IMG/VR virus record: IMGVR_UViG_3300018476_000001 | Span: 1-49,812 of that record | Direction: 5' to 3' (one strand) | Source: a virus | Taxonomy: Duplodnaviria; Caudoviricetes | Length of the DNA stretch: 49,812 nucleotides | Shown: piece after piece, positions 1 through 48,988 of the stretch | Position numbering within the stretch: position 1 is the first letter of the stretch | How the letters are laid out: every line of letters starts with the position of its first letter | Notes under the pieces: generated by a model | Told to the model about the DNA's origin: nothing | The model's database searches: none | The model's input: only the letters and a program-made list of their open reading frames with translations | Translations under genes and position numbers: made by a program

Positions 1-104
1 CAAATGTCGGCGCGCGTGTTCGGATCGAAATGGCGCGGAACCGCCGCGTTGACCCGCCTCAATAGGTCGTGTTCGGGCTTGCCGCCGTCATGGATTAGGA
101 ACGG
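1..104 (+). repeat. Terminal direct repeat, identical to 49709-49812 (circular assembly overlap)
   Basis: caaatgtcgg...gattaggaacgg occurs at both ends. Confidence 0.97.
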
Positions 105-1066: not shown

Positions 1067-1149
1067 GCGATAGTCCGACACTCACCCGGAGGGCGGAGAC
1101 CGGAACGGGCTCCGTTCATGAGTGGCGGCGGTGCCGAAGGCAATCGCCC
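1067..1149 (+). repeat. Structured element E1 (orientation B)
   Basis: CACTCA/TGAGTG stem; cggagAccg-gaa-cggGctccg; ends tgccgaaggcaatcgccc. Confidence 0.85.
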
Positions 1150-1168
1150 AACCTGTGCATTTCCTGCA

Positions 1169-1354
1169 TCAGTTCCCATCTTCACCCCTCCTCCCTATGA
1201 GGTTGCGAAACTCTCGAAAGTCGCGGCGCATTTGCTCCCATGGATCGACGCCGATTTCGATGACGGGGCATCCCTTCGGCGGCTCGCTGTTTGAGTTGTC
1301 GCTCGTCCACACTTGCGCGAACCTCGGCGCGGCTTCACCCCTTCTTAGTGTCAT
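1169..1354 (-). CDS. Small hypothetical protein (61 aa)
   Basis: ATG at 1354 (MTLRRGEAAP...), fits operon packing. Confidence 0.5.
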   Translation of the reverse strand: MTLRRGEAAPRFAQVWTSDNSNSEPPKGCPVIEIGVDPWEQMRRDFREFRNLIGRRGEDGN

Positions 1355-1817
1355 GGCTGATCCCCGATGAAGGTTGGGCGTCCCGGCCTTCGGCCGTCGG
1401 GCTCTGCTCGCTTCGCTCATCGAGCCCCGCTTCGCGTGTCTCGCCCGCTGTCGCGGCGACGATCCCTGACGCGGCGCGGGCGTGGACCTCGCGCAGATCT
1501 GACTCTGCTGCCTCACGCCAGCCATCGCCGTGACGGAACCAATGTCCGAGGAACCGGTGAAGAAAGAACGCCTGCTCGTCCTCCGCCCGCTTCGGAATGT
1601 CGAAGCCTGCGGCCCGATAGACCCGCGAGAACCGAATGAACGTGAAGCACTGCCGGCCGAGGATGTCGGCCAACTCAGGCGTCAATTCATCGGGCCACGC
1701 CGCGTTAGGGACTAGCGGCTCTGCCTGAGACTGCGCAGCAGGCTCAGCCCCGAAGGGGCGCAGGCCCGGCGACGGCGAAGCCGACGCAACGCCCAATTCT
1801 CCTTTGTCCACAGACAT
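1335..1817 (-). CDS. Hypothetical protein; core paralogous to 9920..10372; both termini encoded by elements
   Basis: GGAGG RBS before ATG 1817; shared core AAWPDELTPxLADILGRQCFTF...FFLHRFLGHWFRHG. Confidence 0.8.
   Translation of the reverse strand: MSVDKGELGVASASPSPGLRPFGAEPAAQSQAEPLVPNAAWPDELTPELADILGRQCFTFIRFSRVYRAAGFDIPKRAEDEQAFFLHRFLGHWFRHGDGWREAAESDLREVHARAASGIVAATAGETREAGLDERSEQSPTAEGRDAQPSSGISHDTKKG
1376..1473 (+). repeat. Structured element E2 (orientation A)
   Basis: gggcg...gggct...cgagcc...gtctcg...gatccctgacgcg. Confidence 0.9.
1701..1794 (+). repeat. Structured element E3 (B)
   Basis: cgcgttaggga...tgagActgc-gca-gcagGctca...ccccgaagggg...cgccc. Confidence 0.9.
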
Positions 1818-1857
1818 TAAAACCTCCAGTCGATCTCGGCGAGAATGTCGGGGTGGG

Positions 1858-2262
1858 TCATGCCGAGTAATCCGGCAGCAGCCGCGGCATTTCGGCCGTC
1901 TCGTAGGCGTGGGCGATTTTGCGCCGAACCTCCTGCCCGACGAGCGTCCCATTCGGCAGCACGACGTTCGCCAGAAACTCATCCTCGAACAGGACGATGC
2001 CGCTCGCCACAGCCTCCAGCTTCGCCTTGATGACCAGCAGCAGGGCGCGCATGGCGACACGGCGATCCTGAGGGTCGCGGTCCTTGAGGCCGATGTAGAA
2101 GCGGACCTGTCGACCTTCCTTGGTGAAGGCGATCAGCCCCTCGTCCTCGCCCAGCATGTAGGCGAACTGCGCCCCATCGTAGCGGGCGACGACCGCGCGA
2201 ATGTCGGCTATGCTCTGCTCCACCGAAACCTTCGTGGTTTCAGCGTACCGGCGGGCGGCCAT
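1858..2262 (-). CDS. Phage hypothetical protein
   Basis: 134-aa ORF with GGAG RBS; first gene distal to attP. Confidence 0.8.
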   Translation of the reverse strand: MAARRYAETTKVSVEQSIADIRAVVARYDGAQFAYMLGEDEGLIAFTKEGRQVRFYIGLKDRDPQDRRVAMRALLLVIKAKLEAVASGIVLFEDEFLANVVLPNGTLVGQEVRRKIAHAYETAEMPRLLPDYSA

Positions 2263-2275
2263 TATCGGTCTCCAA

Positions 2276-2458
2276 GGTTAGCCACGAGAGGCGGGGCGGC
2301 GGCAGTTTTCCGTGCGCCTTCGGACGAGGTTAGACTAACTAAGGCGCTGTCCATAAACGGAAGGTACACTCCTTCCGGGCGCGCCACAACATCAAAGTTT
2401 TCCTTACGCATCAGCGGCTTGCTCCGGCGTTTGGCTAACCGAATTAGCCGGGTTAGAC
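2276..2458. promoter_or_regulatory. Putative integrase arm-type sites (GGTTAGMC)
   Basis: GGTTAGCC 2276, GGTTAGAC 2328 and 2451, inverted GGCTAACC 2433, flanking the core. Confidence 0.55.
2359..2386 (+). other. attP core matching a tRNA 3' end (T-arm plus acceptor, probably tRNA-Arg)
   Basis: GGAAGG-TACACT-CCTTCC-GGGCGCGCCA just beyond the integrase stop; CGGGCGCGCCA is typical of tRNA-Arg 3' ends. Confidence 0.75.
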
Positions 2459-3480
2459 AAACCCCCTCCTTCAAGAGCGTCCATCGCGGCGTCGGCCATG
2501 CGTGCCTGATCGGCTCCCCGGGTGTAGCGCGCGACCTCGGAATCGGTGCTGTGGCCGGTGATCGACTTGATGAGCTGGTTGGACAGCCCGAGCTCGGCCA
2601 TCCGCCGGGACGCGGCCTTCCGGAGCCCATGCGCCGCGCATTGAGGCAGGCCGGCTTCGACGCAGCGCTTCTTGAACCAGTTCCCGAGGCTTTCCTTCGT
2701 GAAGGGCGTCCCGCGCTCGGAAACGAGGAAGGTGGCGCCGCCGGACGGGCATGCGGCAATGGCCTCCCTCAGGCGCGGGTGAATGCGTATCGACAGAAGC
2801 GCGTCGGTCTTGAGCTGCCGCACCTTCACATAGCCGGGCTTGCGGGGATCCTCGCCCATGACGGCGGCATCGGAGCGCCGCTGGGCGGTGTAGAGGAAGA
2901 TGGCGAGCGCCAGCCTTGCCTTGGTGCTGATAGGATGGCGCTCCTGGAATTGCGTGATCTCAGGCTCGGTCCATTCGTGGAAGCCCTTGCCGGCATTCCC
3001 GAGGCCCTTGGCCGCCAGAGCTGGGTTGTCCGACCGCATCCCGAGGATGATCGCGTAATTGAAAAGCTGGCGCAGCCGCTTGAGCAGATTGTTCGCTGCG
3101 GCCGGAGTGTCGGCCATCTTCTCCATCAGCTTCTCGACGTTGAGCGCGCTCATGGTGGCGACGCGACGCTTGCCGAATGAGGCCCGGAAGCGCTCGAGCT
3201 CGCCGCGGTACGTCTTGCGCGTGCTTTCCTTGGGGATGCGCCGCCATGCCGTGCTACGGTAGAATTGGCTGATAAGATCGTCGAAGGTGCCCGGGGCGAA
3301 CCGTTCGGCGACGGGCGACGGCTCGCCATTTTTCCAAGCGAGATATTCTTTCCAGAAGTCATCCGTCCCCGGCAGCGCCTTGGGATAGAGGGTCGCCAGC
3401 CCCTTGCCACGGAAGCGCACCCGCATCCGCCCATGACGGTCGCGGAACTCGCTGGCGTAGGGCGGCAGCGTCCGATTCAT
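2404..3480 (-). CDS. int: Tyrosine recombinase / phage integrase
   Basis: Catalytic motifs TAQRRSD, HGLR, ITGH, ARY; ATG 3480 overlaps the stop of the upstream gene. Confidence 0.95.
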   Translation of the reverse strand: MNRTLPPYASEFRDRHGRMRVRFRGKGLATLYPKALPGTDDFWKEYLAWKNGEPSPVAERFAPGTFDDLISQFYRSTAWRRIPKESTRKTYRGELERFRASFGKRRVATMSALNVEKLMEKMADTPAAANNLLKRLRQLFNYAIILGMRSDNPALAAKGLGNAGKGFHEWTEPEITQFQERHPISTKARLALAIFLYTAQRRSDAAVMGEDPRKPGYVKVRQLKTDALLSIRIHPRLREAIAACPSGGATFLVSERGTPFTKESLGNWFKKRCVEAGLPQCAAHGLRKAASRRMAELGLSNQLIKSITGHSTDSEVARYTRGADQARMADAAMDALEGGGLSNPANSVSQTPEQAADA

Positions 3481-3650
3481 GCGAGGTCGGCCCATTCGTC
3501 GTTGTCATGCCGCTGTTTGCCGGTGGCGGGCAATATCTCAATGTTGCCGTTCGGGTCTATGCGGACGCGGCCGACGGACAGCCCGGCCGCGACGAAGCCC
3601 GAGACGGCGCGCTTGACGTCGGCTTTCGTAAAGCGGGCTGGAGCGGTCAT
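3477..3650 (-). CDS. Probable excisionase / recombination directionality factor
   Basis: 57-aa protein ARFTKADVKRAVSG...GRVRIDPNG immediately upstream of int. Confidence 0.65.
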   Translation of the reverse strand: MTAPARFTKADVKRAVSGFVAAGLSVGRVRIDPNGNIEILPATGKQRHDNDEWADLA

Positions 3651-3662
3651 GTCAGGCACCCT

Positions 3663-3738
3663 CGCCCCGATTGAAGCGGGAACCGGCGAGACGCGTAGCG
3701 GCTCGATCCGCGAAGCGGACGAAAGCGGGATAAGCGCC
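3663..3738 (+). repeat. Structured element E4 (B, lacks outer hairpin)
   Basis: gattgaagcg...cgagAcgc-gta-gcgGctcg-atccgcgaagcggacgaaagc. Confidence 0.85.
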
Positions 3739-3749
3739 TGAAAACACAG

Positions 3750-4664
3750 TCATTCCAGCCCCCCGGAAGGCTTGGTAACGGCGGCGAGGGCTTTGCCGAT
3801 ACGGCGCAGGTCGCCGACCGAATAGGCTGCGGCGGACTCTGTGTCCGTCTCAAGACAGTGGATCGTCGGGATCAGGGCATCAGGAACGCTTTCGGCGTAG
3901 AGACTCGCCTCGCGCGCGAACGGCTCCAGTACCTCTATCGATACGAGAACATGGTCGGGGGGTGACCCTGCTCCTTCGGCATAATCGACACAGTCTTTGC
4001 ATGACGGGTCGAACGCTCCGCTTCGATGCTCAGCGGCCGTCGGGCGAGTTTTGAGGAAGCCAGGGTCTTTCTGCCACGCCGCCGCGCAGTCCGCACAGGC
4101 TGGCATGATGTCGCTCTCATCGCTCACCGTCCCGACAGCCTCAGCCGTGCAAAACGAGCATCGTCCGTCCTCCGTCAGTCCATCAGGGGGTGAAGCGGCG
4201 AGGGCGGCGTAGAGGCGTCCCGCGATAGCCGATGCCCAGTGGCCCGGCGAGAAGGATAGGCGGCGACGGCCTAGCTGCTTGATGTCGAGCGGATGGCAGT
4301 TAGTGTCATCGCAGATTTCGTCCCACGTCGCCTGCATCGTTTCATCGACCAGTGTTTGAAGACGACGTTCGTCCAGCGCTTCTCTAAGTCCCCCATCTGT
4401 GGAGGAGATGGAGGCGAGGACGGCGCTGGCCTTGCTGCGGAAGCCGTCGGCGGCGTCACCACATTTCGCGACGATCTCCTGCCAAGAGAGGTCGGGCCAC
4501 GTCGCCTTAGCGAGCGCAATGGCCCCAAGCTCTACCACCTCCTTGTCCGGTAGAGGTGCGATGGCTACAGGAGTTGGGCGATGCCCTTCGGGCCGCTCTG
4601 CCGGGCTCCGCCCCGAGCCCGTTCCGGTCTCGGCCTGACGGCGGCTGCCGCTATCGCGGGTCAC
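3750..4664 (-). CDS. Mosaic hypothetical protein with CxxC motifs; N-terminus encoded by E5
   Basis: GTG start overlapping the upstream stop; CSFC, CADC, CKDC. Confidence 0.7.
   Translation of the reverse strand: MTRDSGSRRQAETGTGSGRSPAERPEGHRPTPVAIAPLPDKEVVELGAIALAKATWPDLSWQEIVAKCGDAADGFRSKASAVLASISSTDGGLREALDERRLQTLVDETMQATWDEICDDTNCHPLDIKQLGRRRLSFSPGHWASAIAGRLYAALAASPPDGLTEDGRCSFCTAEAVGTVSDESDIMPACADCAAAWQKDPGFLKTRPTAAEHRSGAFDPSCKDCVDYAEGAGSPPDHVLVSIEVLEPFAREASLYAESVPDALIPTIHCLETDTESAAAYSVGDLRRIGKALAAVTKPSGGLE
4576..4658 (+). repeat. Structured element E5 (A)
   Basis: gggcgatgcccttcgggc...ccgagcccgttccggtctcgg...ctatcgcg. Confidence 0.88.
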
Positions 4665-4867
4665 TGGAATATCCCCAGAGCGCCAATTAGTTTGGCCAGC
4701 GCCGCCATAATACAGAACGCGCCAGCCGCGCCTATTGTAAAGCCGAACCCCAGCAAGAACCCGACGCGAGCGCACTCCAGCGCCTTCTCCGGGAACAAAA
4801 TGTTCGTGAATTTGAGCGGATGCCCGTCCTGGTGTATGTGCAAATCGTTATAGAGTTGCGTCTTCAT
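4661..4867 (-). CDS. Small membrane protein
   Basis: MKTQLYND...; hydrophobic C-terminal half; ATGA-coupled. Confidence 0.7.
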   Translation of the reverse strand: MKTQLYNDLHIHQDGHPLKFTNILFPEKALECARVGFLLGFGFTIGAAGAFCIMAALAKLIGALGIFQ

Positions 4868-5331
4868 GCTGCCTCCTTCGTCCGATAACGGTTCTGATAT
4901 TCGGCAAGGCTGGGATCGGGGTCCGTCAGCTTGATCCCGTTCTCGACGCACTCGCGCTGCACCGCGTCGAGAAAGCGGACCATCTGCCGCACCCTCATTT
5001 CGCTCGTGACGGGGATGAACCGCATGGCCTCGACCTTGAGCTGGTACGGCAGCGGCTTGAGCGCCTTGTCGTAGAGCTCGCGGAACTCAGGGCTGTCCTC
5101 GCGCAGGATCGGCACGCCATGACGCAGCTTCCACTCACGCTGCAGCTCGTCGGGAGTCCGGTCCTGAAGCTGGAGAGCGGCTTCCGACGCCCACAGCCAC
5201 ATCAGGCTGTTCTGCTGGCCAGTCCTGTCCCGGCCGTCGATTGACGACACGGTGATCGGGAGCTTTCGCGACAGGAGGAACTTGATCCACAGATCGAGGT
5301 CTTCCGCGTTGGCGAGGATGCGTTCAGCCAT
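4864..5331 (-). CDS. NinB-like recombination protein
   Basis: RTGQQNSLMWLW motif and C-terminal TSEM...M.RFLD.V...GIKL resemble NinB. Confidence 0.7.
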   Translation of the reverse strand: MAERILANAEDLDLWIKFLLSRKLPITVSSIDGRDRTGQQNSLMWLWASEAALQLQDRTPDELQREWKLRHGVPILREDSPEFRELYDKALKPLPYQLKVEAMRFIPVTSEMRVRQMVRFLDAVQRECVENGIKLTDPDPSLAEYQNRYRTKEAA

Positions 5332-5590
5332 TTCTCACCTCGAAATTATGCCGGTTGAGCATGGCCAGATGGACCGTGTTGTGCCCCGTCTTTTCCTCGA
5401 ATTGCCGATCCCCGCCGAGGCTGTGCAGGAGCCGGTGACAGGCGTTGCACAGCTTCACGACCAGCCAATCGTCCTTGGTGATCCGCTGCCAGTTCACGTG
5501 GATAATGTGATGGATGCACTCCGCCGCGGCGCCGCATGGGCACCCGTCGGGCAGCCAGTCCCAATATCTCTGGACGGCAGCGGTCGCCAT
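5324..5590 (-). CDS. HNH-like zinc-binding nuclease (DUF968/Ref-like)
   Basis: CPCG...IHHI...LC..CH motif. Confidence 0.6.
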   Translation of the reverse strand: MATAAVQRYWDWLPDGCPCGAAAECIHHIIHVNWQRITKDDWLVVKLCNACHRLLHSLGGDRQFEEKTGHNTVHLAMLNRHNFEVRNG

Positions 5591-5799
5591 CAGGCAGCCC
5601 TCTCCGCTGCCCGCCTCGCCCGCGCTTTCGCAAGCTGGTTGGCGTTGAAGCACGTCCGGCACGTCCGCGTCCCGCAGTGCGTGATCATGGTGTTCTCGCG
5701 CGTGTAGGGGTGGCCCTTGCGGCAGTGAGTCACGGCTCCCCGCCAGCCCGCGCCCTTGCGGAGCTCGGGGTTCTGGAGAAGGGTGTCGACGGTGATCAT
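5590..5799 (-). CDS. Small Zn-binding protein
   Basis: THCRKGHPYTRENT...CRTC motif. Confidence 0.6.
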   Translation of the reverse strand: MITVDTLLQNPELRKGAGWRGAVTHCRKGHPYTRENTMITHCGTRTCRTCFNANQLAKARARRAAERAA

Positions 5800-6740
5800 G
5801 CCGTCACATTGTCCATGGCCGCGATTCCGCTTTCGTGGAGATCGTAGGCGAGTTGGAATGTGCGGCTCTCGGCGCCGTCGAGCGCTTCGATCGCGTCGGC
5901 GTTGGCGATGCTCCAGTTTTCGAGCATCTTCTTGGTGTCGCACTCCTTCATGCTGGCGATAAGCGGCTTGACCTCGCTGTCGTCGGCCAGCGGAGCAAGC
6001 TCCGCCTCGCGGCGAGCGATCCACGGGCCGAAGCCTTCGAAGTCCTCGCCGTCTCCGGTCCACCATCCGTGATTGGCGTCGCGGATCGTCTTGAGGTCGG
6101 CGCGGTTGTCGCGCTTGAGGTTCTTGAAGCCCTCCAACGTTATGTCGGAGGCGTCGCCGGCCGTCATCATCGCCCGCAGCCGCTCCTTGATCTTGGTGAT
6201 GCCCGGAACCGCGACGGCCTCGATGACCTCGCCGGTTTCGGGATCGTGGCGCGTGCCGTCGAAGCCCTCGACGGGAACTTCCTCGGCCGGCGTCGTCGCC
6301 AGCCCGGCGTTCATCATCACGACGACATGGGCGAAGGCCGACCGGCAGGCCCGCGAGATCGCCCGCGTCTGCGCCATGGCACGAATCGCGTAGTCGGCGC
6401 GCTTCGGAAGATCCTTGCCGCGCACCTTGCCGCCGTACCATGTCGGCTCATCCTCGCCGACGAAGCCCTCCCCGGTTGCTATGATCGTGCCGGTAAGCAT
6501 GTCCCTCACCTCGCCGACGGCCCTCACGCCCCCTTCGACGCGCTCGACGCCGGTAGCGCCCGCCGCGCACCCGTGCGCTCGAGCAATGGCCATCCAGCCT
6601 TCTACCGAGACGTAGCGCTTGCCCTGGATGTTGCTGGACGACGCAAGGACGATTTCCCTGCAAAGCTGCGCCGCGTTGGTGGAGGCGCGGTAGGCTTCCA
6701 CGTTCTCGGCATTGTTGGTGATCGGGACGACGGCGTTCAT
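5796..6740 (-). CDS. Putative ssDNA-annealing/recombination protein
   Basis: Start MNAVVPIT; IQGKRYVSVEGW, AMAQTRAISRA, TPAEE motifs; HDPETGEV linker; upstream of NinB. Confidence 0.5.
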   Translation of the reverse strand: MNAVVPITNNAENVEAYRASTNAAQLCREIVLASSSNIQGKRYVSVEGWMAIARAHGCAAGATGVERVEGGVRAVGEVRDMLTGTIIATGEGFVGEDEPTWYGGKVRGKDLPKRADYAIRAMAQTRAISRACRSAFAHVVVMMNAGLATTPAEEVPVEGFDGTRHDPETGEVIEAVAVPGITKIKERLRAMMTAGDASDITLEGFKNLKRDNRADLKTIRDANHGWWTGDGEDFEGFGPWIARREAELAPLADDSEVKPLIASMKECDTKKMLENWSIANADAIEALDGAESRTFQLAYDLHESGIAAMDNVTA

Positions 6741-6907
6741 TTGACGGCTCCTGCATGTTCGTGGAGATATTGAGAGGGGTGATCGCGGACCTCGCCGTAG
6801 GTCGGGAGGTCGCACTCGCAGTACGGATACAGCTCGCCGCAGACTGGGCAGCGATAGTCCTCGGGCGACTCCAGCGGCGGCGGATCGCGATAGCTCAGGA
6901 CGTTCAT
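6737..6907 (-). CDS. Small Zn-finger protein (56 aa, not in ORF track)
   Basis: MNVLSYRDPPP...CPVCGELYPYCEC; ATGA-coupled at both ends. Confidence 0.6.
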   Translation of the reverse strand: MNVLSYRDPPPLESPEDYRCPVCGELYPYCECDLPTYGEVRDHPSQYLHEHAGAVK

Positions 6908-6973
6908 TCGACCTCTCCCGCAATGGTGTGGTCGGGGGTGATTTGAGTTTGGATGGTCATGGCGTTGAACCTT

Positions 6974-7062
6974 GGGCGTCTCCCCCTTCGAGGGCCGGGC
7001 TCTCGCCTACGGCCGAGCCGCTGCGCGTCTCGTCGGCTGTCGCCGCTTCGATCCCTGACGCG
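6974..7062 (+). repeat. Structured element E6 (A)
   Basis: gggcg...ccgggct...cgagccgctgcgcgtctcg...gcttcgatccctgacgcg; inner end 1 nt from the stop at 7064. Confidence 0.92.
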
Positions 7063-7063
7063 A

Positions 7064-8248
7064 TCACAGCGCGATTCCGGCGGCTTTTTCAGATTGCAAA
7101 AGCAGCTCGTCGAAAAGCCAGGTCTGAAGCTGGCGCGTCATGTCGCTGTAGCCGGTCTTCAGGTGGACGAACTCTTCGAGCAGCGTGCTCGCAACCTCTT
7201 TGGTGCCTTTCTGGAAGGCGGCTTTGGCGATGAAAATGCGATCCTCTTTCGCGAGCCCGTAAACCCCTTCGCCAAGGTCTTCGACAATGGTGATGGGGTA
7301 GCGGTCCAAGTCGTAGCCGGCGGAGCGTAGGAAGCACTGAGCGCGATCAAAACGCTCCCGTTCGATGGGATGAAGATCAACGCTTTCGCTCGGGCCGAGA
7401 TCGGAAAGCGACATCATCCTAGCAAGCGCCATAGCTGACGGGTTAGCCTTGCCGATGTTGTCGAGGCGCCCACGCAATCCGGCAGCCACCCTCAAGAATG
7501 TGGGAGATGGTGAGTTGTGTTCGCGGAACGAGAGATGATGCTCTAGATACTGATCACCACAGGACAGAGCGCCGAGAACCAAATCCTCGCGGTCGCACTT
7601 GGCGAGGCCGAGCGTGATATGGGACTCAGCCTCCCAATCATATTTGATTGTGCGGTCTTCGGTGAGATCGATCTTCCGCAAGATGTTATAGGTATGGCTC
7701 GTCGGTCGACAGAGCGCGCCGACGCGCACATTCCTGTAATAAACGTGCCGTGACATTCCCGGCCGTATTTCGATAAAGTCGTTAGCATAGGCGGGCGCGC
7801 CTTCGAGGACGATCTCGCCGCGCGCATAATAGGCATCCTCAATCTCTTCCGACGCGACGGCAATGACGGTTTCGCTGTCTCCGATCTCGCCGATGTCTGG
7901 CCCGGAAGCGTAGTATCGGCCGCCTTCGTCCAAGGCGTTGCAGGCCAGTTCGCGGAAGGCCATCCAAGGCTTCCAGTCGCGGCCGAGAGAGGTGGTGAAG
8001 CCAAGTTCCTCGCCGTCGAAGGTGACGACGCTGAACGGCTTCCCGCGCACGTCCTTATCGATGGTGCCAAGGCGATGCTCGTCCTTGCCGCGATAGATCG
8101 TCACGGACCCGCCGCCTCGCAGGATGGTGGCGATGGCGAACTTTACCCCGGTGCCGAAGTAGCCAATCGCGCCCTCTTCCTTAACGGAGACGCCGAGAGT
8201 GCGCACCGCCGTCAAGTCAATGAGGCCGCCGTTTCGAAAAACGATCAT
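7064..8248 (-). CDS. GHKL (HATPase_c)-like ATPase with C-terminal zincin-like motif
   Basis: IGYFGTGVK (G2 box), RELACNALDEG (N box), TLLEEFVH. Confidence 0.65.
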   Translation of the reverse strand: MIVFRNGGLIDLTAVRTLGVSVKEEGAIGYFGTGVKFAIATILRGGGSVTIYRGKDEHRLGTIDKDVRGKPFSVVTFDGEELGFTTSLGRDWKPWMAFRELACNALDEGGRYYASGPDIGEIGDSETVIAVASEEIEDAYYARGEIVLEGAPAYANDFIEIRPGMSRHVYYRNVRVGALCRPTSHTYNILRKIDLTEDRTIKYDWEAESHITLGLAKCDREDLVLGALSCGDQYLEHHLSFREHNSPSPTFLRVAAGLRGRLDNIGKANPSAMALARMMSLSDLGPSESVDLHPIERERFDRAQCFLRSAGYDLDRYPITIVEDLGEGVYGLAKEDRIFIAKAAFQKGTKEVASTLLEEFVHLKTGYSDMTRQLQTWLFDELLLQSEKAAGIAL

Positions 8249-8260
8249 CGTACTGCTCCA

Positions 8261-8356
8261 GCGCCAGTGGATTGAAGCCCGTGAGGGTGGAGACGCGCAG
8301 CGGCTCCATCGCGAAGCGACGAAAGCCCGGTCGGCGCCGTAGGCGACGAGGCGCCC
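8261..8356 (+). repeat. Structured element E7 (B)
   Basis: ggattgaagc...tggagAcgc-gca-gcgGctcca...gaaagcccgg...cgccc. Confidence 0.92.
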
Positions 8357-8389
8357 AACCTTGCCATCACTTAGTGTATCCCAGGTAGG

Positions 8390-8647
8390 TCATTGGGGGT
8401 TCCGATCCGAGGTTTCGGGCGATGCGCTCGCTTCGCTCCCGCCGCTCTGGCTTGCTCCGCACTCAGCCTCGCTGCGCGAGTCTTCGCCCTTCGGGAGCCT
8501 GCTGCTATCGCGAAGGCACGACCACAGGAGCCCGAGCGCGCCCAGAATAAGCAACGCCGCAGCTAGGTGCTCCCCGTCAAACAGGCTGGTCACGCCCAGC
8601 GCCGCGCTCACTCCAGAGCCGAACAAGTTCCAGTCGCGAAGGCTCAT
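8390..8647 (-). CDS. Small membrane protein; C-terminus encoded by E8
   Basis: Hydrophobic segments; AAGGAG RBS. Confidence 0.7.
   Translation of the reverse strand: MSLRDWNLFGSGVSAALGVTSLFDGEHLAAALLILGALGLLWSCLRDSSRLPKGEDSRSEAECGASQSGGSEASASPETSDRNPQ
8417..8512 (+). repeat. Structured element E8 (A)
   Basis: gggcgatgc...cagcctcgctgcgcgagtcttc...cccttcggg...ctatcgcg. Confidence 0.85.
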
Positions 8648-8659
8648 ATAACGGCTCCT

Positions 8660-9148
8660 TTATGTGCGGGCGGGTAGCGGGTCTGGTTCGGGCGCGATGA
8701 CGACGCCCCCGGCGCCAATCTCTGTCGCGCCCGCGCTCCCGCCCGCGTTCGGTTTCAGCTTCACTCGCCCGACTTCCTGAAGGACGATGAAGGTGGACTC
8801 GGGGAAGGCGACCAACAGGCGCGCTGCCTCTGCCTCGGCCGCTTCGCGCGTCTTGTGGCGGAAGCTCGGCATCCGCTTACCGCCAGCTTTCTTGCTGAGC
8901 CCTCCCCTGCCGTGTGGCAGGCGCCGGTAGAGAAGGAACGAGCCGTCTTCCCACACCTTCGCCTCGGGAGCGTAGCGGTCGCGTTCGCGAAGAATGGCGT
9001 AGCGGGCGAACCGGAGGGCCACCAAGGTCTCTTCGCTGGAGAGACCGGCCGCAGCGCCCTGCAAGAGGTCGTCAAGTACCCTTAGCGCGCCGTTGTGGGC
9101 CGATCCGGGGTGGCCAACGGGGGCGATAGTGTCGAGGGCGTCAGGCAT
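8660..9148 (-). CDS. Hypothetical phage protein
   Basis: 162-aa ORF; HKTREAAEAEAARL...F.VL motif. Confidence 0.75.
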   Translation of the reverse strand: MPDALDTIAPVGHPGSAHNGALRVLDDLLQGAAAGLSSEETLVALRFARYAILRERDRYAPEAKVWEDGSFLLYRRLPHGRGGLSKKAGGKRMPSFRHKTREAAEAEAARLLVAFPESTFIVLQEVGRVKLKPNAGGSAGATEIGAGGVVIAPEPDPLPART

Positions 9149-9151
9149 CGT

Positions 9152-9325
9152 TCAAGCTCCTGCGAAGGCCGCGCACGCGGCGAAGAGGAAGAGGAAGAGC
9201 GCGGCGACCGCGTAGGGCTCCGCGATAGTTGACAGTCGGCCGAAGGCTGGAGACCGCTTGCGGGCTCCACTCGCGACTGGCGACGGTGCCGAAGGCAATC
9301 GCCCAAAAGGAAGCTCAGCCATCAT
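9152..9325 (-). CDS. Small membrane protein (57 aa); N-terminus encoded by E9
   Basis: MMAELPFGRLPSAP...TIAEPYAVAALFLFLFAACAAFAGA. Confidence 0.55.
   Translation of the reverse strand: MMAELPFGRLPSAPSPVASGARKRSPAFGRLSTIAEPYAVAALFLFLFAACAAFAGA
9221..9304 (+). repeat. Structured element E9 (B)
   Basis: cgcgatag; CAGTCG/CGACTG stem; tggagAccgc-tt-gcggGctcca; tgccgaaggcaatcgccc. Confidence 0.9.
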
Positions 9326-9396
9326 TCAAGCTCCAGAAAACAGGGGCAGGAGGATCGCAAGGACAAGAGCCTCGCCCGCGATAGTGAGGAGGAGCT

Positions 9397-9666
9397 TCAC
9401 AGCGATTCCACCTCCCCAAGCTCAAAGGATATGTCCCGCACCTTGTCGTACAGCCCATCGACTTCCGTCAGATCGTGCATCGCATTGACGAGGATCTTCC
9501 CCGCCTGGCTGGCGAACAGGTTCTCGCGAGACGCTTCCGCTCGAGCCGCCATTGCCGCGTTGATCACCGCGTCCAGTTTGACGAGCTGATCGGATGCCTC
9601 AAGGACCACCGGGCCTATCGTGCGCGCGCCCACAGCATTGCCGCCGCGATCTCTCCACGCGGTCAT
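9397..9666 (-). CDS. Hypothetical protein
   Basis: ATGA-coupled ORF in the left operon. Confidence 0.65.
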   Translation of the reverse strand: MTAWRDRGGNAVGARTIGPVVLEASDQLVKLDAVINAAMAARAEASRENLFASQAGKILVNAMHDLTEVDGLYDKVRDISFELGEVESL

Positions 9667-9923
9667 TTCGGTTGCTCCTCAAGGATGGCCCGGACCTCTA
9701 GGCCGAGAGGGGAGGGGTAAGCCTGTCGGAACAAGCCGCCCTCTGCCCTTGGGTCGATCAGTTCGCTTGGCAGGCCTTCGAACGCGGCGACGTTGAGCCG
9801 TCCGTTCGAGAAGCACAGCAACGACAAGTCTGATTGCTGCCCAGCAGTCAGCTTCCCGGTTATCTCCCGCGCGTTCATGGCTGCCCCGGTCCATGCTTCG
9901 CCGTCTTTGTTTGTGTCGGTCAT
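9663..9923 (-). CDS. Hypothetical protein
   Basis: ATGA-coupled ORF. Confidence 0.65.
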   Translation of the reverse strand: MTDTNKDGEAWTGAAMNAREITGKLTAGQQSDLSLLCFSNGRLNVAAFEGLPSELIDPRAEGGLFRQAYPSPLGLEVRAILEEQPK

Positions 9924-10372
9924 GGGTTTGATCCGGTTGGGTTTTCAGGGCTGGGCGCATCGGCGTTGCCGACCGCGCTCTCGTCTTCGACGGCACCCGT
10001 TCCGGTTGCCGCCCTGCGGGCTTCGATCGCTTGCGCGGCGCGAGTGTGCACCTCCCGCAAATCCGCCTCGGCGGCTGCTAGCCAGCCGCCACCGTGGCGG
10101 AACCAATGCCCGAGGAAGCGGTGAAGAAAGAACGCCTGCTCGGCTTCCGCCCTAGTCGGGATGTCGAACCCTGCGGCCCGGTAGACCTGCGCGAACTTGA
10201 TGAACGTGAAGCACTGGCGACCGAGAATGTCGGCCAGATCAGGCGTCAATTCGTCGGGCCACGCCGCGTTAGGGATGCCACTCTGCGAAGACCCGCCGCT
10301 TGGCGGGGCTGAGGCCGAAGGCTGGCAGCCCGACGGCGCGTCAGCGCCGGAACGCCCAACATCGCGGCTCAT
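9920..10372 (-). CDS. Hypothetical protein; core paralogous to 1335..1817, N-terminus near-identical to 48408..48860
   Basis: Direct sequence comparison. Confidence 0.85.
   Translation of the reverse strand: MSRDVGRSGADAPSGCQPSASAPPSGGSSQSGIPNAAWPDELTPDLADILGRQCFTFIKFAQVYRAAGFDIPTRAEAEQAFFLHRFLGHWFRHGGGWLAAAEADLREVHTRAAQAIEARRAATGTGAVEDESAVGNADAPSPENPTGSNP
9953..10037 (+). repeat. Structured element E10 (A)
   Basis: Central hairpin with compensatory changes (reverse strand cggcaAccg-gaa-cggGtgccg); ends gcttcgatcgcttgcgcg. Confidence 0.88.
10265..10357 (+). repeat. Structured element E11 (B), near-identical to E17
   Basis: cgcgttagggatgccactctgcgaagac...ggaacgccc. Confidence 0.92.
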
Positions 10373-10557
10373 ACCAACCCACCTTCACGAGCAAGACGGG
10401 AGGCGAGTTCACGCCTGACATCTTCGCCGCACGCGCAGTCGCAGATCGAGTAACTGGTCGAGACATTTTCGCCGGTCCAAATGCCGCCGTGCGATGTCTC
10501 CGCGTATCCGCTGTCGCCACAGCGTGGGCACGTTTCGTCTGCGATAGAGGGGGTCAT
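10369..10557 (-). CDS. Small Zn-finger protein
   Basis: CPRCGDSG...CDCACG. Confidence 0.65.
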   Translation of the reverse strand: MTPSIADETCPRCGDSGYAETSHGGIWTGENVSTSYSICDCACGEDVRRELASRLAREGGLV

Positions 10558-11042
10558 GCCGACACCCCGCGGGCCTTGGCGAGTGCGGCTAGCGCGCTTT
10601 CCCACGCATCTATGCAGCCGCTGTCGCCTGCGAAGTGATCGAACGCCGCCTCCATCGTTTTTGCTCGCGAGAGCGGCTTTTCGATTGCGGCCCCGTAGGC
10701 AATGAACATTTCGGCCAGATCGGCCACCGCCTCTGCGAGTTCAGGTGCGGCGGCGATAAGGTGAGCGTTGGCTTCGGCCGTCGGATCGTCTTCGTCGTCG
10801 AATAGGACCTCGGCAATGAACGTGTCGGGTGCGAACACGCCTCGCGACAGACAGCCGCCCATCGGCTCAAGAGTCTCCCCGAGTTTCCACGGCCCCTTCG
10901 TCCACCTTGCGCCAGTCGATGCCGACCCGGAGGGCGGAGACGCGTCAGCGGCTCCGTGCATCGCATCGGCAGCGCGGTCGTCGGCGTCAGCCGACGAGGC
11001 GCCCAACTCTTCCTCGAAATCTCCGTAACCTTCTGACATCAC
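10554..11042 (-). CDS. Phage hypothetical protein (TxGPW...ANAxLIAAAP family); N-terminus encoded by E12
   Basis: WTKGPW and EANAHLIAAAPEL motifs. Confidence 0.75.
   Translation of the reverse strand: MMSEGYGDFEEELGASSADADDRAADAMHGAADASPPSGSASTGARWTKGPWKLGETLEPMGGCLSRGVFAPDTFIAEVLFDDEDDPTAEANAHLIAAAPELAEAVADLAEMFIAYGAAIEKPLSRAKTMEAAFDHFAGDSGCIDAWESALAALAKARGVSA
10909..11004 (+). repeat. Structured element E12 (B)
   Basis: TGCCGA/TCGGCA stem closing three hairpins; cggagAcgc-gtca-gcgGctccg. Confidence 0.9.
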
Positions 11043-11072
11043 TCACATTCCTTCACGTCTGTCCTCGGGGAG

Positions 11073-11372
11073 TCAGGCGGCTTGCCCTTGTTCGCGCGCG
11101 TCTTCGTCGATCTCGTCGATGAAGGCCTTGGGGAATGTGCCCGCCTCGGCTTGAGCGCGCAGCTCGGGGACGGTGGGAACCGGCGGAAGTTCAGCGGTGA
11201 TCCAGTAAGTCGCGGCGGGCAGATGTCCGGCCTCGAGGTGCCAGCCGATCGCCGCGCTCATCGCGTCGGTGTGGTCCTTCGCGTCGAAGTCATCCGGCCC
11301 GACGCAAGTCAGGTGGCCGTCAAGAGCCTGCACGACGGCGAAGCGGATTGTATTGGGTGCGTCGGTTGCCAT
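11073..11372 (-). CDS. Hypothetical protein
   Basis: 99-aa ORF with GGAG RBS. Confidence 0.7.
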   Translation of the reverse strand: MATDAPNTIRFAVVQALDGHLTCVGPDDFDAKDHTDAMSAAIGWHLEAGHLPAATYWITAELPPVPTVPELRAQAEAGTFPKAFIDEIDEDAREQGQAA

Positions 11373-11443
11373 CGGTCAGCTCCATCTATGTCTAAGCTCA
11401 TCCTCGCCGTGGCACCGGGGGAGGGCGCCACAGTCCGGGGAGG

Positions 11444-11683
11444 CTAGGCGAGCCCGAGGGCGGCTTTGTAGGTTTCGAGGAGCGCTTCGCTTTCCTGCCG
11501 ATCATGAGTTTCCATGCGGCGGAGGCGGACGATGGCGCGGATGGTGGGCGCGTCGTAGCCGCGAGCTTTCGCCTCGCCATACACGTCCTTGATATCGTCG
11601 GAGATCGCCTTCTTCTCCTCCTCAAGGCGCTCGATGCGCTCGATGAGGAGGCGGAGTTCGTCGGCGGCTACGGTGTCGGTCAT
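11444..11683 (-). CDS. gapR: GapR / DUF2312 nucleoid-associated protein homolog
   Basis: ADELRLLIERIERLEEEKKAISDDIKDVYGEAKARGYD...LLETYKAALG. Confidence 0.92.
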   Translation of the reverse strand: MTDTVAADELRLLIERIERLEEEKKAISDDIKDVYGEAKARGYDAPTIRAIVRLRRMETHDRQESEALLETYKAALGLA

Positions 11684-11709
11684 CGGTCGGCTCCTATGTC
11701 GATAGAGCC

Positions 11710-11761
11710 GTTGTACACCTTACAACAGAGCGGTCAAGCGGAAAGTTGTGTGTCTTACAAC
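11710..11761 (-). promoter_or_regulatory. PL promoter with two 17-bp operators
   Basis: GTTGTACACCTTACAAC (11710-11726) and GTTGTGTGTCTTACAAC (11745-11761); TTGACC -35 on the minus strand between them. Confidence 0.8.
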
Positions 11762-11789
11762 TTTCTTGCGTGGGGGACTAGGCGGGCGC

Positions 11790-12101
11790 TCAGCCTGTCC
11801 TTACGAGCGCCGCCGCAACCTCGGTAATCTGTCGGCGCACTCCAGGTTTCGCCTGATCCCAGATCGACCAGATGCCTTCAGGGTCGGCCGGGTCCCGCAT
11901 CAACAGGCTCGCCGGCTCCGTGCCCAGCGCCTCGGCAAGCCGTTCTAGCATCTCCTGATTATAGGGCAAAAGGCTCCGCTCGACCCGGCTCAGATTGCCC
12001 TTGTCCATGGGCACCTTAGCCGCGAGCTGCTCCAGTGACATATGTTTGGCCGTGCGCCATGCGCGGATGAAGTTTGGTCCGAATCGCGGTTGCTTTGGCA
12101 T
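11790..12101 (-). CDS. CI-like XRE-HTH repressor (no peptidase domain)
   Basis: IRAWRTAKHMSLEQLAAKVPMDKGNLSRVER; divergent from the cro-like gene. Confidence 0.85.
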   Translation of the reverse strand: MPKQPRFGPNFIRAWRTAKHMSLEQLAAKVPMDKGNLSRVERSLLPYNQEMLERLAEALGTEPASLLMRDPADPEGIWSIWDQAKPGVRRQITEVAAALVRTG

Positions 12102-12123
12102 GGCCCATCGTCGGCCAAAAGCG

Positions 12124-12186
12124 TACAACGAACGAGCCCCGGCCGTACAACCGGCGCTTGACGAGGGCCGTTGTATCACTTACAAC
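12124..12186 (+). promoter_or_regulatory. PR promoter and operator
   Basis: TTGACG 12158; operator GTTGTATCACTTACAAC 12170-12186; TACAAC half-sites at 12124 and 12146. Confidence 0.8.
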
Positions 12187-12193
12187 CTCTGCC

Positions 12194-12412
12194 ATGGACC
12201 CCAAACAGCTCCTGCGCGACTATCTCCGCGGCCGGGAAATCGCTCCTGCGGTATTCGCCCGCCAGCTCGATTACGACAAAGGCAACTTTCATCGGCTTCT
12301 CAACAGCGATGATGCGTGGCCGTCGCTGGAGCTGGCGTTCCTGATCGACCAGGAAACCGGCGGCGCCGTTCCAATGGCCGCGTGGGCGGAAGCCAAGGCG
12401 AGGGCCGCATAA
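12194..12412 (+). CDS. Cro-like HTH protein
   Basis: LRDYL...FARQLDYDKGNFHRLL...PSLELA..I...TGGAV. Confidence 0.85.
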   Translation: MDPKQLLRDYLRGREIAPAVFARQLDYDKGNFHRLLNSDDAWPSLELAFLIDQETGGAVPMAAWAEAKARAA

Positions 12413-12558
12413 TGGCCACCCTCTCTCGCCAGCCGACGGAAATCGAAATCCGTCATTGGCTGATCCTCACCCGCTGCCGCATCTCCATGGCACACACGCC
12501 GCTCGATCCGACGCGGCTGATGAAGGCGCACAACGACAACCGAGGCGACGTCGCATGA
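12412..12558 (+). CDS. Small hypothetical protein
   Basis: Overlap-coupled between cro and the methylase. Confidence 0.5.
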   Translation: MATLSRQPTEIEIRHWLILTRCRISMAHTPLDPTRLMKAHNDNRGDVA

Positions 12559-13214
12559 CCGGCATGGGCCTCACCCTTCCCCCCGGTCCCTTCGGCTGCA
12601 TCCTCGCGGACCCGCCCTGGCGCTTCGCCACGTTCAGCGCGAAGGGGCGCGGACGCTGTCCGGACGGCCCGATCTCGCCGACGGCCACCCGCAACCTGCA
12701 GCGACAGAACCGCCCGGAGCGGCACTATCCGACGATGACCTTGGCCGAAATTCAGGCGCTTCCCGTTGCACGGCTCGCCGCCAAGGACTGCGTCCTCCTG
12801 ATGTGGGCAACGGACCCGCTGTTGCCGCAAGCCCTGCAGGTCGGTGCCGCCTGGGGCTTCACGTACAAGACGACCGGCTTCATCTGGGCAAAGGAGCGCC
12901 GCGTCACCAGCCGCCGGGGCGACGCCTTCTCCGATCCCGACGAGAAGCGCTTCCCGATGGGCACCGGCTACTGGACGCGCTCGAATCCCGAGCTGTGCCT
13001 GTTGTTCACCCGCGGCGCCCCAAGGCGCCTCTCCGCTGCAGTCCGCAAGCTTCTGATCGCCCCTCGCCGCGAGCACAGTCGGAAGCCCGACGAACAGTAC
13101 GAGCGGATCGAGGCGCTTGTCGGCGGACCCTATCTCGAGCTTTTCGCCCGCGCTCCTCGTGAAGGCTGGGCCGCATGGGGCAATGAGACCTCCAAATTCG
13201 CGGAGGCCGCATAG
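12555..13214 (+). CDS. MT-A70 family N6-adenine DNA methyltransferase
   Basis: ILADPPW, HYPTM, GTGYWTRSNPE, HSRKP, YLELFAR, WGNE. Confidence 0.92.
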   Translation: MTGMGLTLPPGPFGCILADPPWRFATFSAKGRGRCPDGPISPTATRNLQRQNRPERHYPTMTLAEIQALPVARLAAKDCVLLMWATDPLLPQALQVGAAWGFTYKTTGFIWAKERRVTSRRGDAFSDPDEKRFPMGTGYWTRSNPELCLLFTRGAPRRLSAAVRKLLIAPRREHSRKPDEQYERIEALVGGPYLELFARAPREGWAAWGNETSKFAEAA

Positions 13215-13550: not shown

Positions 13551-13553
13551 GCC

Positions 13554-14228
13554 ATGGAGGCTGGGCGCATCCCCTTCGGGGACCGGGCTGGCGGTCCTGC
13601 GGACCCGAGCCGCCAAGGCGTCTCGGCCGAAGGCGCTCATCCCTTGCGCGACGATAGCCGGTGGTCGCTTGACGAGGCAGTCGCCCTCTGCCGCGAGATA
13701 GAGGCCATCTGCCCTGGCTACGGCTGCCACGTCGCGCTGACCGGCGGCACGCTCTACAAGGACGGGCGCCGCAAGGATTGCGACCTTCTCTTCTACCGCA
13801 TCCGCCAGTCGCCGCAGATCGACGAGGATGGCCTGTTTGCCGCGCTGGCGTTGATCGGCGTCACCAAGACGGGTGGCTACGGCTGGTGCCACAAAGCCGA
13901 GTATCGCGGGAAGGCTATCGACTGCTTTTTCCCGGAAGAGGACGGCGAGTATCCGACTGAGGAAGAGGTCGATTTCACGCCGGAAGATGTCGCGTGGGCG
14001 CTCAGCGATAGTGCGATTGAAGCGCGAAGCGGCGAGACGCTTGCGGCTCGATCCGAAGGACGAAAGCGCCGGTTCCGCGAAGCGGAAATCGCCCAGAATA
14101 TCCCGGATCAACTCCCCGATTCGAACGAACCGACACCGTCGCTCTACACCCAGGGATGCAACTGCAATCCGGTGCCGGTCCTCGATTCCTCCCTTCATGA
14201 AGCCGCACATCGCATCGAAAGGCGCTAA
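13554..14228 (+). CDS. Putative minimal nucleotidyltransferase-fold protein flanked by E13/E14-encoded peptides
   Basis: ALTGGTLYKDGRRKDCDLL fits hG[GS]x9-13DxD. Confidence 0.55.
   Translation: MEAGRIPFGDRAGGPADPSRQGVSAEGAHPLRDDSRWSLDEAVALCREIEAICPGYGCHVALTGGTLYKDGRRKDCDLLFYRIRQSPQIDEDGLFAALALIGVTKTGGYGWCHKAEYRGKAIDCFFPEEDGEYPTEEEVDFTPEDVAWALSDSAIEARSGETLAARSEGRKRRFREAEIAQNIPDQLPDSNEPTPSLYTQGCNCNPVPVLDSSLHEAAHRIERR
13563..13650 (+). repeat. Structured element E13 (A)
   Basis: gggcgcatccccttcgggga...ccgagccgccaaggcgtctcgg...atcccttgcgcg. Confidence 0.9.
14006..14094 (+). repeat. Structured element E14 (B)
   Basis: gcgattgaagcgcgaagcg-gcgagAcgc-tt-gcgGctcg-atccgaaggacgaaagc...aatcgccc. Confidence 0.9.
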
Positions 14229-14233
14229 AGATC

Positions 14234-16091: not shown

Positions 16092-16462
16092 AGGATGGGC
16101 GCGTGGCTGCGCCACCGGGCTCTCACCCTTCGGGCCACGCCGGCTGCGCCGTCGATGGCGCTTCGCGTTTCGATCCCTCGCGCGTGATTAAGTTGGGACT
16201 GCCGTGGCCGTGGCGCTTCCGCAAGATAGCCATTCGTGGCGACACCTGCTTTTTCTGGGCCTACTCGCGTCGGACCTTCGCCGTTGGGTTCGAAGACCTG
16301 CAGGACGGCTTTATCGTCTTCCTAGGCTGCTTCTGTATCGGCTGGGGCAGCATCTCGGCTGCGATGGACCGTGAGCCGGAATATTACACCCGAGCCGACG
16401 TGGATGCCCTCTACGAGAAACTGAGGGGTGTGAAGTTCTGCGATAGCGATGAAGCGGCATGA
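16082..16462 (+). CDS. Hypothetical protein; N-terminus encoded by E15
   Basis: AAGGAGG RBS; 126 aa. Confidence 0.7.
   Translation: MRIEDGRVAAPPGSHPSGHAGCAVDGASRFDPSRVIKLGLPWPWRFRKIAIRGDTCFFWAYSRRTFAVGFEDLQDGFIVFLGCFCIGWGSISAAMDREPEYYTRADVDALYEKLRGVKFCDSDEAA
16097..16184 (+). repeat. Structured element E15 (A)
   Basis: gggcgcgtggctgcgccaccgggct...tttcgatccctcgcgcg. Confidence 0.88.
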
Positions 16463-47882: not shown

Positions 47883-48090
47883 TCATTTCAGGCGAGTCCT
47901 CACCGGGATGGAATAGCGAGTAGGTGCTTAGCCCCGCCTCGATCATCTCCTCAGTGATTTCTCGTTCTAGCGCCGGCCCGTCGCCTTCGCCTATCTGGTT
48001 TTCGTCATGGTACGTCAAGTGGGGTATCCCCCTCGCGATAGTCGATTGAAGCCTTTGGTGGAGACGATTTATCGGCTCCATGCGTAGCAC
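47842..48090 (-). CDS. Hypothetical protein
   Basis: EITEEMIEAG motif; end of the left operon. Confidence 0.55.
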   Translation of the reverse strand: MLRMEPINRLHQRLQSTIARGIPHLTYHDENQIGEGDGPALEREITEEMIEAGLSTYSLFHPGEDSPEMIIRQVYLAMRACA

Positions 48091-48136
48091 GAAAGCGACG
48101 GTTTGCGCAGCAAAATCGCCCTCACTCCGGAGTAGG

Positions 48137-48407: not shown

Positions 48408-48860
48408 CTAGGGGTTGGGCGTCTCGGCGCTTGTCGCGCCGACCTGGCTCTCGTCTACGACCGCGCCACTCTTCGGTGTCGCGGCCCTACGGGCTTCGAT
48501 CCATGACGCAAGATCAGCCGCCCACGCTGCTTCTTGCGCGGTCACCCAAGCCTCGACCGCGTCCCAATCATGGTAGCCGGGCTCTCCATAGCGCTGCCCT
48601 TCGTTCAGAATGTCGTGGAGGGCGCCAGTGAGGTTATCGTGCCATTTGCCGGTCGGGCTCGAGCCCCAGTCAAATGCCGTGGCCTCTTCTGTCCCCCGCT
48701 GAGTGCCAGCGTAATAGATGTCCCGTATCCCGCCGTATGAGAGCGTCAACGCGTTAGGGATGCCACTCTGCGAAGACGCCGGAACGGCGGCTGAGGCCGA
48801 AGGCTGGCAGCCCGATGGCGCGTCAGCGCCGGAACGCCCATTCTCCAGCTCGTCAGCCAT
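48408..48860 (-). CDS. Hypothetical protein; both termini encoded by E17/E16
   Basis: Shares GRSGADAPSGCQPSASA...SSQSGIPNA and IEARRAAT..GAV.DES with 9920..10372 but has an unrelated core. Confidence 0.8.
   Translation of the reverse strand: MADELENGRSGADAPSGCQPSASAAVPASSQSGIPNALTLSYGGIRDIYYAGTQRGTEEATAFDWGSSPTGKWHDNLTGALHDILNEGQRYGEPGYHDWDAVEAWVTAQEAAWAADLASWIEARRAATPKSGAVVDESQVGATSAETPNP
48417..48510 (+). repeat. Structured element E16 (A)
   Basis: gggcgtctcggc...ccgcgccactcttcggtgtcgcgg...gcttcgatccatgacgca. Confidence 0.88.
48750..48839 (+). repeat. Structured element E17 (B)
   Basis: Near-identical to E11. Confidence 0.92.
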
Positions 48861-48897: not shown

Positions 48898-48988
48898 GGG
48901 CGCCTCGGCTACGCCGACCGCGCTACCCTTGCTGCGCACGGAGCCCCGTTCCGGGTCTCCGCCCTTCGGGAGGGTATCGACTGGCGCG
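48898..48988 (+). repeat. Structured element E18 (A)
   Basis: TACCCT/AGGGTA stem; cggagccccgttccgggtctccg; ends atcgactggcgcg, 1 nt from the stop at 48990. Confidence 0.9.

Follow-up and report, generated by a model that had tools for sequence, protein, structure and literature searches.

Branched repeats with conserved A.G mismatches in a temperate podovirus: a probable folded single-stranded DNA signal with relatives in conjugative plasmids and microviruses

What is the role of a short, hairpin-rich repeat that recurs in a phage genome, and does it act as DNA or as RNA? The question is raised by positions 6974 to 7061 of the window, the whole 49,812-nucleotide stretch analysed here, which is a complete circular phage record with an end repeat of 104 nt. 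Family searches of the window proteins identified a tyrosine integrase, a repressor, a terminase and podovirus-type virion genes; the phage is a temperate podovirus. Its host is probably alphaproteobacterial, because a GapR-like gene is present and Sphingopyxis phage VSN-002 is matched, the sole cultured tailed phage for which this was the case. The GapR-like DNA-binding protein is encoded at 11444-11683, an MT-A70 methyltransferase at 12537-13214, and a DUF559-type nuclease at 16459-16947.

A covariance model search of the window gave 18 full copies of the element and one truncated copy, all confined to the early and accessory regions of the phage. Two more model matches, at 28431 (E 0.07) and 8690 (E 0.8), were discarded because the element ends are absent. 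Strand B denotes the folding strand, and strand A its complement. The copies are as follows:

1067..1149, plus strand: copy facing 48898-48987 across the genome end
1376..1472, minus strand: copy, end of the cassette 1376-1794
1702..1794, plus strand: copy
3662..3739, plus strand: truncated copy, without P0 and P5; weak match to the Rfam family Flavo-1 (21.5 bits against a gathering cut-off of 42)
4576..4657, minus strand: copy with no near partner
6974..7061, B strand minus: the element under study; its B strand comprises the terminal stem P0 (GCGTC/GACGC), an unpaired 3' CC, the side hairpin P5 with a GAA loop, and a core in which P2, P3 and P4 meet the basal stem (P1, holding a tandem GA/GA as well as two A.G pairs) at a four-way junction
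7014..7032, minus strand: central hairpin P3 of 6974-7061, CGAG-A-CGC-GCA-GCG-G-CTCG, with an A.G mismatch and a C-GCA-G loop
8261..8356, plus strand: inward-facing partner copy, which brackets the cargo together with 6974-7061
8417..8511, minus strand: copy, end of the cassette 8417-9304 (E 0.12, then read by eye)
9222..9304, plus strand: copy
9953..10036, minus strand: copy
10266..10357, plus strand: copy (E 0.06)
10909..11004, plus strand: copy with no near partner
13563..13649, minus strand: copy
14005..14094, plus strand: copy, end of the cassette 13563-14094
16097..16183, minus strand: copy with no near partner
48035..48121, plus strand: copy with no near partner
48417..48509, minus strand: copy, end of the cassette 48417-48839
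48751..48839, plus strand: copy
48898..48987, minus strand: copy

Three of these copies (1702-1794, 10266-10357 and 48751-48839) form one subtype with a reduced P2, and the latter two enclose different cargo and are near-identical to each other over 52 nt (98%).

The repeat is predicted to form a branched one-strand structure with three conserved A.G mismatches. Strand B consists of a 5-bp terminal stem, P0 (GCGNN/NNCGC, with NN in at least eight paired forms), an unpaired CC on the 3' side, a three-way junction from which the hairpin P5 branches, the basal stem P1, often with a tandem GA/GA, and a four-way junction with P2, P3, which holds the central A.G, and an optional P4. A sequence-only reading of this locus had described the central A opposite G as invariant and had quoted four hairpins as examples, all of which are present among the window copies. 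The mismatch is invariant in the window (19/19 copies, by eye) but only near-invariant elsewhere, being kept in 48/52 viral copies found with a search pattern that left the centre free, and in 120 of 131 unique model-aligned copies, where three of the 11 exceptions are Flavo-1 copies. Two further A.G pairs, absent from that reading, were found in P1 in 117/131 and 127/131 of the model-aligned copies; the second of these, but not the first, was partly fixed by the search pattern. In the P5 hairpin of 8261-8356, the GGC/GAC context is the same but the mismatch is reversed (G.A), and nested irregularities are also seen in other P5 hairpins (window 8261-8356 and 48417-48509).

The structure rests on covariation; single copies fold no better than their shuffles (z -0.55 for 6974-7061 as DNA). 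Both-side changes were observed in 24 of 25 pairs in the alignment fitted to the model, and in 19 of 25 on the MAFFT seed. The 3207 paired cells comprise 3034 Watson-Crick pairs, 54 G.T pairs (1.7%) and 25 A.C pairs. Strand B outfolds strand A in 109/113 copies with DNA parameters, and in 94/113 with RNA parameters.

Copies are paired, facing inward around one small gene (GGGCG...cargo...CGCCC). Neighbours less than 1 kb apart were inward-facing in 66 of 95 cases, with some contigs counted twice, and in 28 of 40 in a second set. The features of the cassettes to be considered are:

6957..7067, minus strand: 36-codon frame through the element; its GTG overlaps the cargo stop and its TGA overlaps the next ATG
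6968..6973, plus strand: AACCTT, a direct repeat of 8357-8362 beyond the other cassette end
7064..8248, minus strand: cargo gene, 394 aa, phrog_8203, function unknown
1473..1701, minus strand: 229-nt cargo with 83% identity to 10037-10265 over its full length, flanked by different element variants
10037..10265, minus strand: second copy of the 229-nt cargo

Judged from its overlaps, the 36-codon frame is likely to provide translational coupling. The frame at 9920-10372 spans the A end, the cargo and the B end, with its own start and stop outside the cassette, and 21/28 cassettes are open in one frame throughout, compared with 33% of random stretches. The AACCTT repeat is the sole flanking repeat longer than 3 nt (1/36 cassettes in one set and 0/28 in another), and a general model of target-site duplication was rejected on these counts. 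Antisense pairing between the A and B ends, of the c4/CI type, had been offered as an alternative in the sequence-only reading. It gained no support: Rfam c4 gave no match, and similarity between the ends of one cassette (0.63) is no higher than between randomly chosen ends (0.64), so that co-adapted ends were rejected.

The GNA loop types are stable in DNA. The central loops of the 19 window copies include 12 GNA loops (6 GAA, 5 GCA, and 1 GTA, all closed by C-G), 4 TT, 1 GTCA and 2 others. A census over the four hairpins (n=419) gave 244 GNA loops (157 GAA, 42 GCA, 31 GTA, and 14 GGA), of which 214 are closed by C-G, along with 27 GNYA, 21 TT/TTT, 10 GNRA and 117 other loops; it replaced an early and noisy census of 113 copies, in which 183 GNA loops were counted against 12 in shuffles. 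On the mirror strand, 7 GNA loops and 1 TTCG loop were found. These counts bear out the claim that most loops are GNA triloops with all four N, usually closed by C-G. Two of the checks proposed with it, G.T against A.C pairs and loop classes per strand, have been run with the outcomes given above, and the RNA-type tetraloop bias that had been named as refuting evidence is not dominant. Both orientations do occur in one transcription direction, as had been stated, with 8 copies read as B and 11 as A when the direction is taken from gene orientation.

Relatives of the element were found outside tailed phages. In the 99 kb of plasmid F there are two full copies, both in the leading region (58.1 and 63.5 kb); they occupy the distal ends of the repeats that precede ssb and the last leading genes. 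A Serratia IncF plasmid contains three copies, three further plasmids contain a single copy each before a leading-type operon, and seven ICE-like alphaproteobacterial contigs contain a single copy before genes that, from their translations, we take to be ardC/ardA/parB-like. The R46 plasmid has three copies, two of them at the distal ends of 655-nt repeats upstream of ccg genes, and these repeats are taken to be the CUP repeats (PMC5027574). The repeats of both F and R46 stop at the outer end of the element. Strand B lies opposite the leading genes in F (2/2), R46 (3), the Serratia plasmid (3), the three plasmids and the seven contigs, and its placement is unclear in one contig (L140). According to a published rule (10.1101/2023.02.15.528439), such a position opposite the leading genes marks the transferred strand. 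Three published Frpo* candidates (PMC11541004) terminate in the element, in which a -35/-10 pair was not seen. The F copy was found by blastn in 4274 plasmids, 3268 of which were called conjugative, and in a Xanthobacter plasmid a copy lies beside repA/parA. The element was not found in the 12-62 kb segment of ColIb-P9, which has Frpo, in ColE1, or in the phiX174 F-G gap, and the phiX174 pas region likewise gave no match.

Four microviruses contain one copy each, on the VP1-sense strand (that of the capsid gene and the virion) in 4/4, although the gaps in which the copies lie differ; among 79 related microviruses, none has the element. Short contigs that had been suspected to be inoviruses proved to be tailed-phage fragments where they could be identified. 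In two contigs (L111 at 3150-3450 and L142 at 10000-10400), degenerate hairpin repeats, one of which is a partial second element, occupy 350 nt between the element and an ardC-like gene, and these are a candidate alphaproteobacterial single-strand promoter. Two element-bearing phage contigs (L323 and L352) also contain a DUF932 gene, from the family to which the last leading gene of F belongs.

Pattern hits from Treponema and Flavobacteriaceae reach the cut-off of Flavo-1 (RF01705; 6 hits); outside the limits of the Rfam model, P0, P5 and the CGCCC end are present in these hits as well; the element model in turn matches three Flavo-1 hits weakly, at 31-33 bits. Both anchors were present in 15 of 117 pattern hits in genome contigs, most of the hits being chance matches. 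The basal stem of RF01705 with its A.G pair, the tandem GA and the GCGNNAG lead-in are present in the element. Rfam searches gave no match at gathering in the window and four weak ones at E<=10 in positions 1-15000, the best Flavo-1 match being that of the truncated copy; a search of F gave sok only, with Flavo-1 absent from the F copies. The element is related to Flavo-1, yet it is a member of no tested family. In a Treponema genome with more than 150 Flavo-1 copies, many contigs have a plus copy close to their start and a minus copy close to their end, so that the assembly seems to be interrupted within inward-facing composites like those of the phages. TD-2 lies directly 5' of some Flavo-1 copies in the same genome (L213 and L217).

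Does the fold act in DNA or in RNA? We consider it very likely that the element acts as folded single-stranded DNA, because strand B is antisense to mRNA in the plasmids and sense in the microviruses, yet is the single-stranded DNA strand in both, and because of the loop types and the scarcity of G.T pairs. The strand-specific reading proposed from the sequence is well supported on the same grounds, above all by the strand used in conjugative elements and microviruses. A structured RNA (a small RNA, a processing site or an antisense pair), as Flavo-1 is filed, is highly unlikely. Covariation fits RNA equally well, Flavo-1 is an sRNA candidate in Rfam, and many GAA loops are readable as UUCG on the other strand, 100 of the 157 being preceded by CC, such that they could refold there as cUUCGg. 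These points are met by the few GNRA loops (10/419) and G.U pairs (1.7%), by both orientations within one phage operon, by cassette ends that are not co-adapted, and by the switch between non-transcribed sense in plasmids and transcribed sense in microviruses. In F. psychrophilum, Flavo-1 hits are sense, antisense or outside transcripts (PMC9723704). The element is real, well beyond chance, and most likely a folded single-stranded DNA signal of wide reach.

Comparisons between related phages indicate what is exchanged at these sites. In a pool of 238 copies, 15 pairs had only the outer flank in common, and 22 pairs only the inner side. In 10 of the 15 outer-flank pairs, the two elements match at 85-99%, and unrelated sequence begins on the inner side at the base before GCG. 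One phage contig (L376) has the same element and outer flank as window 13563-13649, with unrelated sequence inward of GCG, and two other contigs (L010 and L036) have both ends and flanks in common around unrelated cargo. Six of the 22 inner-side pairs are phage cassettes with homologous cargo and a different element, switching at GCG, and two of these six are accounted for by the duplicated 229-nt cargo of the window; 15 consist of single copies within one group of phages; in the last, that of L387 with window 9222, the break is at the outer end instead. Elements appear mostly to belong to the slot, and cargo to be what changes, because the outer-flank pairs switch at GCG and the phrog_8203 cargo gene lacks flanking elements in 5/5 homologs from other phages. 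The evidence for swapping consists of genome comparisons, with no exchange event observed directly. An empty site for the cassette 6974-8356 was not found in 26 loci, and none of three joints listed for one contig set is at the element edge. A group of tailed phages (L317, L322, L337, L357, L388, L001 and L021) has a single copy, with a conserved 5' flank and an element variant exchanged at GCG. The exact swap point, the inward-facing pairs, and the plasmid, microvirus and Flavo-1 relatives were not part of the sequence-only reading.

Our main reading, to which we assign a rough probability of 0.45, is that the element is a putative site for cutting and rejoining at the P0 foot by a trans-acting enzyme. 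A cut-and-join protein would be the simplest account, since the junction at the 5' edge is sharp, and the sequence of the fold varies while its unpaired bases are constant. Strand B would fold whenever it is single-stranded, during replication, recombination by phage annealing proteins or conjugative entry, or in virion DNA, and P0 would draw the two ends of the element together. The protein would read the A.G-studded axis of P1 and P3, and cut at the foot of P0. With one B at the 3' side of each cassette strand, one cut per strand could free or receive cargo, and with frames open through both ends, new cargo could borrow the start and stop signals of the slot.

The enzyme would have to be supplied by the host or by another element, as family searches found no mobiliser among the window proteins. 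None was found either in the 145 of 187 cargo frames, from 102 cassettes, that were searched; matches there were to DUF1643, Fic, a deaminase, methylases, an RNA ligase and one HNH, with core genes arising from mis-paired ends. The comparison with integron integrases and HUH transposases made in the sequence-only reading remains an analogy, given that neither the phage nor the first 145 cargo frames yielded a gene of either kind. Among 53 RAYT/IS200 or GIY-YIG loci in Flavo-1 genomes and relatives (partial genomes), about three are near the element, all of them in the genome with more than 150 copies, and an association with either family is unsupported; the counts are rough, as the search pattern missed at least one long copy (L421). 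That Treponema genome also has 13 short RAYT-like frames (L419-L429), of which three that were read seem to be without a clear HUH motif, and two or three lie near the element, about as expected from density.

Against cutting and rejoining stand the negative searches for an enzyme and an empty site, the break at the outer end in L387 with window 9222, and the F and R46 repeats, which also stop at that end. In addition, there is no obvious benefit of a cutting site on an entering plasmid strand or a microvirus genome, and the constant position of the element, distal in single-strand promoter repeats, suggests selection for a different function. The main alternative, possible if rather unlikely, is that the element is a second-strand priming signal (ssi/sso), at which a host primase, primosome or RNA polymerase starts synthesis; from two inward copies, the cargo would be amplified much as in PCR, and new strands would begin at the sharp edge. 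Such a signal suits the microvirus and plasmid positions better than cutting and rejoining does, with one copy on the virion strand of four microviruses, which need it, a copy beside repA/parA in the Xanthobacter plasmid, and copies on the transferred strand immediately 3' to Frpo, the copying of which would call for a primer at that place. However, some 95 nt separate the end of the published ssiD fragment from the element, which also has no relation to ssiE (compared by eye; PMC11541004), and the lack of matches in phiX174 pas, ColE1 and the 79 related microviruses also speaks against priming. Moreover, the F loci past ssp2, both copies included, convert late, and early events are lost with rifampicin (10.64898/2026.01.09.698686), which argues against efficient priming by primase or PriA.

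It is unlikely that the element is a passive or protein-bound single-stranded DNA structure, serving as a brake on second-strand synthesis, a nuclease shield or a loading site, with breakpoints arising from template switching or annealing at a stable fold without a dedicated enzyme. The fixed distal position in the Frpo repeats of F and in the R46 repeats upstream of ccg/ard genes would suit such a structure, as would the ERF, YqaJ and NinB genes that are common beside phage copies. On the other hand, a stall would mark the outer end, whereas the phage breakpoints are at the inner edge, and the invariant unpaired bases point to specific recognition. Furthermore, ssp2 is where the F roadblock was mapped (10.64898/2026.01.09.698686), and the nearer copy is some 1.5-2 kb away; once this roadblock is removed, psiA is only 14 s behind yfgB.

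These findings connect an Rfam entry, listed as an "RNA" of unknown function, with DNA that occurs naturally in single-stranded form. They also reveal a conserved, uncharacterised structure in the leading region of F, which is open to direct testing in E. coli K-12. Should exchange be the correct reading, phages would be able to acquire and replace accessory genes with single-base precision, and its enzyme would offer a new tool for work on single-stranded DNA. A published description of the element was not found in the literature searched, which was mostly without subscription papers, the original ssi, Frpo and CUP papers among them.

How does the element compare with known systems? Like the ssi/sso signals, it lies on the single-stranded strand, but it shows no likeness to phiX174 pas, the ColE1 sites, ssiD or ssiE. 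It occurs in the same repeats and on the same strand as the Frpo/ssiD and CUP modules of the F and IncN leading regions, but lies outside the ssiD fragment and is absent from the Frpo-bearing ColIb-P9 segment. A DDE-type MITE or composite with terminal inverted repeats was rejected, as there is no target-site duplication, the ends are unlike, and they stay with the slot. The pdif modules of Acinetobacter plasmids, each a gene flanked by inverted sites, are exchanged as units by an enzyme acting in trans; their sites have dif-like XerC/XerD arms, whereas the element has none, and is a fold of about 90 nt with little sequence conservation. REP/REPIN-RAYT and NTS-Ssn GIY-YIG systems (PMC11893778) involve repeated single-stranded DNA hairpins with fixed irregularities, inverted pairs and cleavage beside the hairpin. 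The element has such repeats and pairs, but is longer and multi-branched, and no flanked cognate nuclease gene was found in the partial genomes searched. Flavo-1 has the same basal stem and outer frame as the element (RF01705; Weinberg 2010, PMC2864571), but forms one long hairpin without a central A.G, where the element has the P2-P3-P4 junction; it is dispersed in chromosomes, at 5 to more than 150 copies per genome, and the window copies fall below its cut-off.

The search for integron site features in the element gave negative results: the RYYYAAC core is not conserved (A 69%, A 53%, and A 44% after CGCCC), and an R''/R' core (RYYYAAC...GTTRRRY) with L boxes in one hairpin was not found. 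The integrase seen among the window proteins is the phage's own tyrosine integrase. In integron attC sites, one strand folds, structure is conserved over sequence, unpaired bases are conserved and the cargo genes are small. The element has the same one-strand fold, structure kept above sequence, conserved unpaired bases and small cargo; however, attC is a single hairpin with one direct site per cassette, whereas the element is branched, with two inverted sites that stay with the slot. We tentatively suggest that Flavo-1 and the elements of F/IncN plasmids, microviruses and temperate phages form one branched single-stranded DNA family that may be the substrate of a probably host-encoded strand transfer, and that the inward pairs of phages may be in-frame expression slots that capture and swap foreign genes lacking sites of their own, in an integron-like manner without an integrase.
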